Program-made: the position numbers
In this document: positions 16,501 through 19,500 of the stretch, one piece after another
How positions within the stretch are numbered: position 1 is the stretch's first letter
Layout of the letters: every line of letters starts with the position of its first letter
Assembly (NCBI RefSeq): GCF_017348835.2
Contig: NZ_CP071375.1
Length of the DNA: 64,000 bases
Source: Escherichia coli
GTDB taxonomy: Bacteria > Pseudomonadota > Gammaproteobacteria > Enterobacterales > Enterobacteriaceae
Reading direction: 5' to 3' (one strand)

Positions 16501-19500
16501 GCTTCGGGCTGTTTGCGCATTGATGCTGAGATACGCTTCCAGTCTTCGCGATCCTTGTCGATAACCTCATTTGTCGCCCAGCGATGGATGGTACCGTCAA
16601 TGTTTCCTGCATCCACATCACCGGGCCAGAGGGCGCAGGCCAGTTCATTGTCGAGTGTTTTCCATGTCTGTTTGTATTCGCGGCGAATGGCAACAGTGAC
16701 AGCCCCGGTTTTTTCAGCAGCGTTTTCAGTGTTCTGTTGGTTGACTCTGGCGCGGGTGAGATCAACAACAGACGTGTATTTTCCGGTTTCCTTGCGTTCA
16801 CCTTCGCGACGTTTTTTCCAGATGCGCATCTCTGCCTGAATTTCAGGCCATTTAGCGCCAGGCTCACATTTATGCTTAACCCACCCGATGGCATGCAGTT
16901 TAAGTTCAGGATACATGGCGTTAACTTCTGGCATTTTCATCAACGCTTCAACGATATGTCCGCCGAATGTTGCCATGTCTTCCTGTAGTAATTCCTGTGC
17001 GCTAATCACCATATCAACGGTGATGTTTTCGCATGTGTCGAATTTAACCAGGACTGCGTTCTGTACTTCAGGGGACAGCTTGTCAAAATTGACGTTCATC
17101 GGATCGGATTCTGGTTCGACCGGTACAAAGGAAGCTGACTCCTCATCCCAGCGGTTTTCCTGCATATATTCGGTATCCCAGGAATCGAGGGCAGGGCGGG
17201 GTATGCCGGGTTTATCCTCGCAGACAATAAATTTATAAGCGCAGTCCTGAGCTGCCGGGAATTGCTCCAGAAATTGCCAGTGAAATTTTGCGCGTGCGCG
17301 ACGCTCATCACCGGCTTCAATGGCAGTGGCCACCGCAACAGCGCTATCTTCTTTTATGGCCTGTTCGTCAGGAATAGCAGCGCAAATAAAGATTTTACTC
17401 ATTGTGTTTTAACCTCATTACAGATTTAAGGGTGAACAAATCCCTGCCATTGCTGGCATATAAAAATGAAACCGGATATTAATTACGGTGCTGTTTTAAA
17501 GTCCTGCCGGTATTTCGTTATTATTAGTGTGAGTAGTTTTATCTACCGGATAACAGTTACCGGGAATTTTTTGTTCTGCTGCTGCAGCCATGCATTCTTT
17601 CATTGAACCGTATAAGCCAGTCACCAGCTCAAGAGATTCGCCGGAAACAAGATAAACTGTCAGAACGAGTGCAAATGTTGTATTCATTGTTTATATCCTT
17701 TTTGCAGCAGGTCCAGACGAGCCAGCATTGAAGGAATGCATACTTCATTTAACAGGTCCTGCTCGAGTTTTCTCTGCTTAATGGCGTCTTCAATAAATGT
17801 TTTGTCTCCAGTGATAACGCCAATTTCGAAACGAAGTTCAGACGTGCTGGCATTACATGATAACTTTTCCATTATCGCGTCCTCAACAATGAATTTTGTG
17901 ATGCGGTGCCTGGTGCCTCCAGGTGACGTTAACCAGTTAACAATTAACGCCGGATACAGAGCATTCTCGTTACTCAGCAAATGACCGCTTTACCGATTTA
18001 ACTGTTCCGCGTGCGCTGAGCCGCATTCACCGCATCACAAAATTCACTTTTAAAAAAGGGCGGCAGAGCAGTCACGGAGTAAAACTGATACCGCCAAATG
18101 TCACCAGAATATTGATAACAGAGGGCGTTGCAGCGGGGTTGTCACTTAAGCGTATGGTCAACCTGACAACCCGGTGTCCTCAACGGGGAAAGAATAACCC
18201 CGCCATACTTACCGCCGCGCCATTTCGCGGATTGCCACAACCGGAAGCGCACGGTCGAATTAAATTTAACGACGGCTCTAAGGGAGAAGGACTTCGCCGT
18301 GCACTTTCGTGTTATGCCCTGACTTTTCAGGGATATATCCTTTCAGTAAACTGTCAGTGCCGGATTCTTATCTGTGTCCGGCGCACGACCACACGTAGCA
18401 GCGTGTTGGTCTCCATTTTTAATTCAGCCCTTAATGGAGGATAAAATGCCAAACAAACCATGCCCTGCCTGTAACGCTCTTTCTGGCTTTTTAGAGAAGG
18501 GCGGTTATTACATTTTTAACTGTCCAGAACATGTTGAATTTCATATATCAAAACTTGACAGTATCATTACAAAGCCAAATCAGTATCAGTCTGATTTACT
18601 GAATAAAGAGTTAAACGCCGCCCGAGATTAAGGGCGTAGTGGCCCATTAAAAATATTGCAAAGACCAACTATTGTTGAACTGGATTAAACCAGTAATTCT
18701 CTATTGCTCTTATTGTTACCATCGGATGATTGCCGGGGGTTATTTTAAGTTCGGGAGGAAAAGGCTCTCCATCAGCAGCCATCATTGAGTATGTGAAATC
18801 CGCCGACGCAGTCCCTTTCATGATAATTCCGAATTTTTCAAGTAATGAGAGCAGTTCCGGTAATCCTGTGTCATCTGAATAACTTTCCTCATAGAAAGAA
18901 GCGATTGCCGCAGGAGATGACAGTTCTCGCTCTGCAATTTTTTTGTAGTTTTCCAGAGTTCTTTTTTTGAATACTTTTCCTCGACATGAAAACCCATCAC
19001 CGAGGCAATCCGCTTTGCAGTTTCTTCAGTATTCTGGTTGTTTGTTACCGAAACAGAGTACAATCCGGTAAACGCATCGCGCACATTACGAGCCATATTA
19101 TCAATGTATTTCTTCGTTGCAGATTCTAATTCAACTTCGTTCAGACGTTGGTGAAGTGCATGTGCTGCAATTTCCTGGATTTCTTTTAGTAAATCTTTAA
19201 ATTCCATCTTTAACTCCGTTAGTCGTTAGATTTTGCCGAACTGGAAAGCGCCTGTTTAAACTCACTGAAGCTGAGAGCTTCCTCGCCTTCGGCAAGGCCT
19301 TTGAACCGCCCCGGGTTTCCTGGAGAGTGTTTTATCTGTGAACTCAGGCTGCCAGATCATTATTTCCGATGGAAGCATAATAAGCTTTTTCTGCTTCTGC
19401 CGGAGGAATATGGCCCAGCCTTTCCAGCAATCGTCGATTGTTATACCAGTCCACCCACGTTAGTGTGGCCAGTTCCACTTCTGCACGGTTTTTCCAGCTC

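Follow-up and report, generated by a model that had tools for sequence, protein, structure and literature searches.

DicF is a textbook prophage small RNA (sRNA), and multiple dicF copies are documented in the prophages of pathogenic Escherichia coli. In K-12, the dicBF operon of the Qin prophage is driven by dicBp, a PL-like promoter under DicA repression. Its transcripts either end at the dicF terminator, at 1,146 nucleotides (nt), or read through to ydfD (1,608 nt), with RNase III yielding a stable 190-nt "long DicF" and RNase E needed for the 53-nt form (PMC10448788). A 72-nt form can arise by RNase III cleavage of read-through RNA (PMC9438474). Together with Hfq, DicF represses ftsZ, manX, xylR, and pykA and, in enterohemorrhagic E. 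coli (EHEC), activates pchA. Here we compare these systems with positions 17981-18445 of a 64,000-nt stretch of E. coli DNA (assembly GCF_017348835.2, contig NZ_CP071375.1), the whole of which is referred to as the window. An earlier note, made from the sequence alone, had flagged this interval as gene poor, with local hairpins. We conclude with high confidence that it is the untranslated center of the dicBF operon of a Qin-like lambdoid prophage, transcribed from the minus strand and encoding DicF with a structured precursor. The RNA of the stretch is therefore the long-known DicF with its known 190-nt precursor, and in this respect the finding is ordinary.

dicF and its precursor

The coordinates of the flagged interval are sound, and the biological unit exceeds it, running from 17873 to 18445 on the minus strand. 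Its parts are as follows.

18058-18109, minus strand: dicF, a 5' single-stranded seed, UUCUGGUGAC, and then a terminator hairpin (Rfam RF00039)
18110-18125, minus strand: AU-rich single-stranded linker, GCCCUCUGUUAUCAAU, of 16 nt, ending at the mature DicF start; presumed RNase E cleavage region, placed by alignment to K-12
18126-18242, minus strand: conserved 117-nt leader domain, with helices P1, PA, PB, and PC and a proposed pseudoknot, PK
18243-18390, minus strand: untranslated module upstream of the leader, containing a long, imperfect stem (3' arm 18244-18262, 5' arm 18292-18309; minimum free energy [MFE] fold)
17873-18057, minus strand: dicF-dicB spacer with a U-tract, a long-range helix, and the dicB ribosome-binding site (RBS) (MFE fold; 85.9% identity to K-12)

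Rfam model RF00039 matches 18058-18109 on the minus strand with a score of 77 bits (gathering score, 48; E value of 4.5e-16), and the match spans model positions 1 to 52 of 52. The copy agrees with K-12 dicF at 51 of 52 nt (98.1% identity), with A for G at position 12, and it is preceded by an A for U change immediately 5' of DicF. The terminator hairpin, GGCGGUAUCAG...CUGCUCUGCCGCC, is seen in both the Rfam alignment and the MFE fold, and the U-tract UUUUUU lies at 18052-18057. Synteny agrees with this identification. The dicB start codon lies 185 nt downstream of dicF and is followed by ydfD, and the upstream side holds ydfA and ydfB. The minus-strand DNA between ~18390 and the dicB start codon has its homolog in the ydfC-dicF-dicB untranslated region of K-12, and in phage Tritos the same element is annotated as DicF. 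The identity of dicF, its synteny, and its conservation are thus direct observations of this analysis, as is the secondary structure of the leader described below. The earlier note had proposed that a structured noncoding RNA lies here, early-left in a lambdoid prophage, and the DicF match and its precursor bear this out, although that proposal named neither the RNA nor its strand, and the hairpins it singled out belong to the precursor leader and not to DicF.

The leader, linker, and DicF together come to ~186 to 190 nt, and their 5' edge abuts a stem of 13 to 18 bp. Because of this length, we match them to the published 190-nt RNase III precursor. The stem belongs to the upstream module, which is 83.8% identical to the ydfC-dicF spacer of K-12; its inverted repeat, I1, is 13 nt long and 85% complementary, and the 5' arm differs between the window and K-12 by G-U/G-C swaps only. 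As the long stem ends where a 190-nt RNA ending at the dicF U-tract would begin, it is probably the RNase III site that makes the 5' end of the precursor, at ~18242 to 18246. Downstream of dicF, a helix in the spacer (18028-18047 with 17889-17908), just upstream of the dicB RBS GAGGA (17880-17884), is a candidate RNase III site for the 72-nt DicF form. In the MFE fold of the 190-nt RNA, GUUAUCA of the linker pairs with UGGUGAC of the seed and leaves the presumed RNase E site in a loop, which suggests that the long form may keep the DicF seed partly masked.

By analogy with K-12, a polycistronic minus-strand transcript would partly terminate at the dicF terminator. RNase III would cut the long stem (18244-18309) to give a species of ~190 nt, made up of the 117-nt leader, the 16-nt linker, and DicF, and RNase E would then free 53-nt DicF by cutting within the AU-rich linker. 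Together with Hfq, this RNA would pair with the ftsZ, manX, xylR, and pykA mRNAs (and pchA in EHEC), and cell division would be blocked. The cleavage sites, targets, and expression ascribed here to the window copy are those expected from K-12 by length and homology; the predicted cleavage determinants (stem 18244-18309 and linker 18110-18125) are conserved in the window.

Two considerations weigh against this account. The presumed promoter is separated from dicF by an IS3-family element (19344-20557) and an opposed open reading frame (ORF) (18446-18631), and these could lower or abolish transcription of the window copy; the insertion thus bears on whether this dicF is expressed. In addition, the extreme conservation of unpaired nucleotides in the leader seems to exceed what a mere precursor would need.

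The upstream module and the spacer each have relatives elsewhere. In phiSTEC1589-Stx1c (PQ600364, 6970-7124) and PhiR5_2 (PV340546, 6653-6805), the RNase III-stem module (window ~18236-18388) is found without the leader domain, and the untranslated region is therefore a mosaic of at least two separable modules. The spacer gives a partial, below-threshold match to STnc100 (RF02076) at 17895-18044, scoring 33.6 bits against a gathering score of 47 over model positions 21 to 154. A full-length STnc100 copy is present at 35816-36006 on the plus strand (138 bits against the same gathering score), in the late region directly after three phage tRNA genes (35490-35736). The spacer is a weak partial relative of STnc100, and its pairwise alignment to the full copy is poor. 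A dicF copy with part of the spacer also occurs, at 90% identity, in the 254-kb record of Aeromonas phage AP1 (MT713136.1, 249906-250149), where an sRNA of E. coli prophages would not be expected.

Structure of the leader domain

The leader folds into a closed multihelix structure whose elements lie on the minus strand.

18234-18241 with 18127-18134, minus strand: helix P1, closing the domain
18226-18230 with 18215-18219, minus strand: helix PA, the CCGCG...CGCGG repeat at 18215-18230
18198-18202 with 18184-18188, minus strand: helix PB
18164-18172 with 18136-18144, minus strand: helix PC, GGGTTGTCA/TGACAACCC, complementary at 9 of 9 bases
18203-18208 with 18152-18157, minus strand: proposed pseudoknot PK, pairing the PA-PB linker with the PC loop

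Both inverted repeats named in the earlier note are thus present, as PC and PA. A covariance model of the leader, R1, finds a single copy in the window at 144 bits, and the MFE fold of the 190-nt RNA recovers P1, PA, PB, and PC. The structure exceeds chance: the minus-strand RNA of 17873-18446 folds at -212.9 kcal/mol (z = -5.86), and none of 100 shuffles does as well. The plus strand of the stretch also folds well (z = -5.36), and since both strands fold about equally well, folding energy alone gives no strand.

Homologs of the leader were taken from IMG/VR, GenBank phages, and P1-like plasmids. The domain can be described by the pattern GGCGGTAAG N{28,55} CACC N{7,10} AGGTTGACC, the actual spacing in the second gap being 8 nt. 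When 31 sequences were aligned with plain MAFFT, 94.9% of cells were paired, compared with 35 to 55% when partners are slid, and 10 pairs varied at both positions (2.8 +/- 1.2 in shuffles). With 48 sequences aligned by the covariance model, 13 pairs did so, against 4.3 +/- 1.3. In neither case did any of 500 shuffles reach the observed number. The compensatory changes are located in P1, PB, and PC, and PA is almost invariant. All four leader helices are supported by covariation. Many U-G/G-U pairs in helix P1 are possible on the minus strand only, and it is because of these pairs and the covariation that we assign the RNA to that strand.

The pseudoknot is plausible rather than proven. PK is paired in all sequences, with one compensatory change (C-G in phage P1 versus U-A elsewhere) and three U-G wobbles, though its pairing is partly fixed by the search pattern used to collect homologs. 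The unpaired nucleotides of the leader are near invariant among the homologs.

An Rfam scan of 17850-18500, with E values up to 10, returned DicF and the weak STnc100 match only; the leader is therefore not a curated family. A tRNA-like reading of its cloverleaf shape was considered and rejected, ARAGORN being negative for 17800-18600 and Rfam giving no tRNA match there. In the literature that we searched (dicF and antitermination, "dicF-like," and HK639), no paper was found to treat the leader as an element distinct from DicF.

Occurrence and possible roles of the leader domain

The leader is as conserved as dicF itself. It is 98.3% identical to its K-12 counterpart, compared with 98.1% for dicF, 72.5% for dicB, and 77.1% for ydfD. 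It also moves between unrelated phage backbones with different cargo hairpins and is far more conserved than the flanking proteins. In phage cdtI, for which no N gene is annotated, it lies ~285 nt after PL, and in the ban operon leader of P1 and P7 it lies ~50 nt after the C1-controlled promoter Pban; it is also found in Stx2c phages, Salmonella phage F1055, pPE4, and others. In all contexts examined (cdtI, P1, F1055, pPE4, and Stx2c phages), it is in sense orientation downstream of a repressor-controlled early promoter. An intrinsic terminator follows 35 to 70 nt downstream in 116 of 118 IMG/VR instances; at one locus, L117, there is no nearby terminator. The DicF seed, TTCTGGTGA, is present in only 62 of the 118, and at least six other linker/terminator types stand behind the same domain. 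Only one of the variant cassette types tested passes the Rfam DicF gathering score, and the cdtI, P1, F1055, L029, L031, L055, and L087 types fail it. In every variant, the hairpin is preceded by a U-rich stretch and followed by a U-tail.

Two further features accompany the domain in some carriers. At the F1055 locus (L130, ~3135-3220) and at L093 and L127, a long terminator hairpin encloses an RBS and ATG, and a tiny ORF enters the 3' arm of the terminator, a possible leader-peptide arrangement. Matches to the C4 antisense RNA and isrK occur beyond the immunity region, on its far side, in several domain carriers (L006, 40-228; L093, 2569-2769; L117, 1793-1981; L059, 5848-6036; L130, 29-105).

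These distributions raise the possibility, which we advance tentatively, that the leader domain is a distinct mobile phage RNA class with its own function, either as an RNA polymerase (RNAP)-modifying antiterminator unrelated to put or as a launch pad for swappable sRNAs. Were the leader to have such an activity, it would help explain how lambdoid phages with no recognizable N gene and the P1 ban operon pass their first terminator, or how phages diversify their sRNAs.

The sRNA version of this idea holds that the leader is a conserved biogenesis and stability handle for interchangeable phage sRNAs, DicF being one of several cargoes. The domain would protect the long form and position RNase E, and the unit would consist of the domain, a variable seed linker, a U-rich stretch, and a terminator hairpin. 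Such a role is compatible with the identification of the RNA as DicF with its precursor, which it extends, and we regard it as a minority possibility worth keeping in view. It would account for the DicF seed being confined to just over half of the instances (62 of 118), for the six or more other linker/terminator types, and for only one of the variant types tested scoring as DicF. A U-rich stretch, a hairpin, and a U-tail, as kept in every variant, are the usual Hfq-binding arrangement. The 190-nt form, moreover, stably accumulates in K-12 (PMC10448788). Set against this, a passive handle would not require near-invariant unpaired nucleotides, the variant cassettes are putative sRNAs only, and the hairpin holds a tiny ORF in three instances (L093, L127, and F1055), while L117 does without a nearby terminator. 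A platform for DicF-like sRNAs nevertheless fits better than a put-like antiterminator because of the tight terminator linkage and the swappable linker.

The antiterminator version seems unlikely to us. Under it, the 117-nt leader would be an autonomous cis-acting RNA working on early-left transcription, either as a put-like processive antiterminator that takes RNAP past the dicF terminator and into dicB or as a sensor tuning termination there. By way of background, put RNA suppresses termination via the zinc-binding domain of the RNAP beta-prime subunit. The sense orientation of the domain downstream of repressor-controlled early promoters in all contexts examined would suit such a role, as would the terminator located behind it in 116 of 118 instances, which must be read through for downstream genes to be expressed, and the lack of an annotated N gene in cdtI. 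The near-invariant unpaired nucleotides point the same way, and at 117 nt the domain is close in length to the annotated putL-like RNA of HK639 (126 nt). Read-through transcripts do exist in K-12 (PMC10448788). An early-leader position before the first terminators of an N-less phage holds in cdtI, the Stx2c phage, and F1055; for the window copy, however, the repressor gene (21600-22001), next to which the promoter presumably lies, is at least ~3.4 kb away.

Direct comparison with put is also unfavorable. Rfam reveals no link to put RNA, and model R1 does not match at the put sites: the HK022 loci give nothing up to an E value of 10, and the sole HK639 match (E value of 2.5; 3921-4039) is far from the putL-like RNA at 34187-34312. 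By eye, HK022 putL and the HK639 putL-like RNA share just short strings with the domain. The architecture differs as well, with three hairpins, a closing stem, and a pseudoknot in place of the two stems of put. Even with filters off, neither the window nor the complete genome of cdtI yielded a second, PR-side copy, and by eye no alternative pairing between domain and terminator is conserved between the Qin and P1 types. Membership of the leader in the put family was rejected on the lack of matches at the HK022 and HK639 put sites and of a PR-side copy.

That the stretch instead codes for a protein or, as the earlier note had allowed, a short peptide is scarcely credible, for although the 110-amino-acid (aa) plus-strand ORF (18112-18444) and minus-strand ORFs of 29 to 36 aa exist, and prophage early-left regions do hold small toxic peptides, no ORF has a Pfam match, the small ORFs are unconserved and match no family, no frame is conserved on either strand, with the longest ORF over the domain ranging from 0 to 95 aa among 107 distinct homologs, close relatives differ in hairpin B by indels of +1, +4, +5, and +8 nt, which are not multiples of three, and substitutions compensate for one another within RNA helices instead of clustering at third codon positions. 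The view of the earlier note that no convincing coding ORF covers 17981-18445 and that the 110-aa ORF does not look like a protein is supported.

Genomic setting

The stretch sits within a 573-bp gap between the dicB start codon (17872, minus strand) and a 61-aa ORF (18446-18631, plus strand). Over the surrounding 1.9 kb, identity is 100% with E. coli PE164 and 99.9% with O103:H2 12009 and numerous other strains. In RefSeq, two records whose DNA is identical to the window here (NC_013353 and NZ_CP114128) show the 573-bp gap without any annotated gene or dicF feature, and a dicF feature is present in the curated K-12 record. Automated annotation thus misses a regulator able to block host cell division and, in EHEC, to alter virulence gene expression. 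The features that frame the gap are as follows.

17684-17872, minus strand: dicB, next in the operon and encoding a 62-aa inhibitor of cell division (Pfam PF05358 DicB, 131.8 bits, residues 1 to 62 of 62; RefSeq dicB)
17496-17687, minus strand: ydfD homolog (DUF1482), downstream of dicB (Pfam PF07358, 69.2 bits; RefSeq annotation)
18391-18445, no strand: lineage-specific junction at the end of Qin homology (57% identity, with alignment breakdown), comprising the 5' flank and RBS of the 61-aa ORF
19344-20557, minus strand: IS3-family element within ydfB, with an ALIL pseudoknot at 20160-20276
21600-22001: DicA-like repressor gene, with the promoter presumed adjacent

Gene order follows the RefSeq features of the identical prophage, which were placed on the window with an offset that also recovers the location of the IS frameshift pseudoknot. 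Along the minus strand, the DicA-like repressor gene is followed by relB, relE, ydfA, ydfB (split by the IS3-family element), and a 129-aa ORF, and then by the untranslated region with dicF, dicB, ydfD, an 823-aa exonuclease gene, an excisionase-like gene, and the integrase gene. The IS3-family element separates the repressor and promoter end of the operon from dicF and may affect the expression of both dicF and dicB. O103:H2 12009 carries the same prophage without this element.

Homology to Qin and related phages ends at ~18387 to 18390, the phage homologs ending at 18387. Beyond it lies the 61-aa ORF, which is annotated in RefSeq as WP_001133046.1, contains a CPxC...CPEH motif, runs antiparallel to the operon, and takes the place that ydfC has in Qin; Pfam gives no match to it. 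Its strong RBS, GGAGGA, is at 18437-18442 and is overlapped by the inverted repeat CTCCATT/AATGGAG (18411-18417 with 18433-18439). Elsewhere, the window also contains a sok antitoxin RNA (102 bits; 29489-29655, plus strand) and a second IS3-type ALIL frameshift pseudoknot (28368-28484, plus strand).

Comparison with known systems

The closest relative is the dicBF region of K-12 Qin. DicF (RF00039) agrees at 51 of 52 nt, and the terminator hairpin, the upstream leader and RNase III stem, the downstream dicB-ydfD pair, and the DicA/PL-type early-left position are all shared. The window differs from Qin in that ydfC is replaced by the 129-aa ORF and the opposed 61-aa ORF, relBE lies between the repressor gene and ydfA, and ydfB is split by the IS3-family element.

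More distant is the "dicF-like region" of the P1 ban leader (NC_005856, 68791-68892), so labeled by the P1 annotators. What matches there is the leader domain (PA, PB, PC, and PK), at 76.5% identity and with compensatory changes, and a strong terminator follows it, as in the window. The P1 leader has neither the DicF seed nor a DicF-type hairpin, its closing helix P1 is not evident, and its downstream genes are tRNAs, tciABC, and ban.

The put RNAs of HK022 and HK639 resemble the leader in being structured RNAs of ~70 to 126 nt in the early-left leader of lambdoid phages, upstream of terminators. They differ in helix layout and share no homology detectable by covariance model, and no PR-side copy of the leader domain was found in the window or in cdtI.

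In its biogenesis, DicF also resembles the Hfq-dependent sRNAs released by RNase E, such as SroC and CpxQ; like them, it is excised from a longer mRNA once early intrinsic termination has occurred, and it has an Hfq-type 3' end (PMC9438474). It is set apart from SroC and CpxQ by an extra RNase III step and by an unusually long, highly conserved upstream domain.

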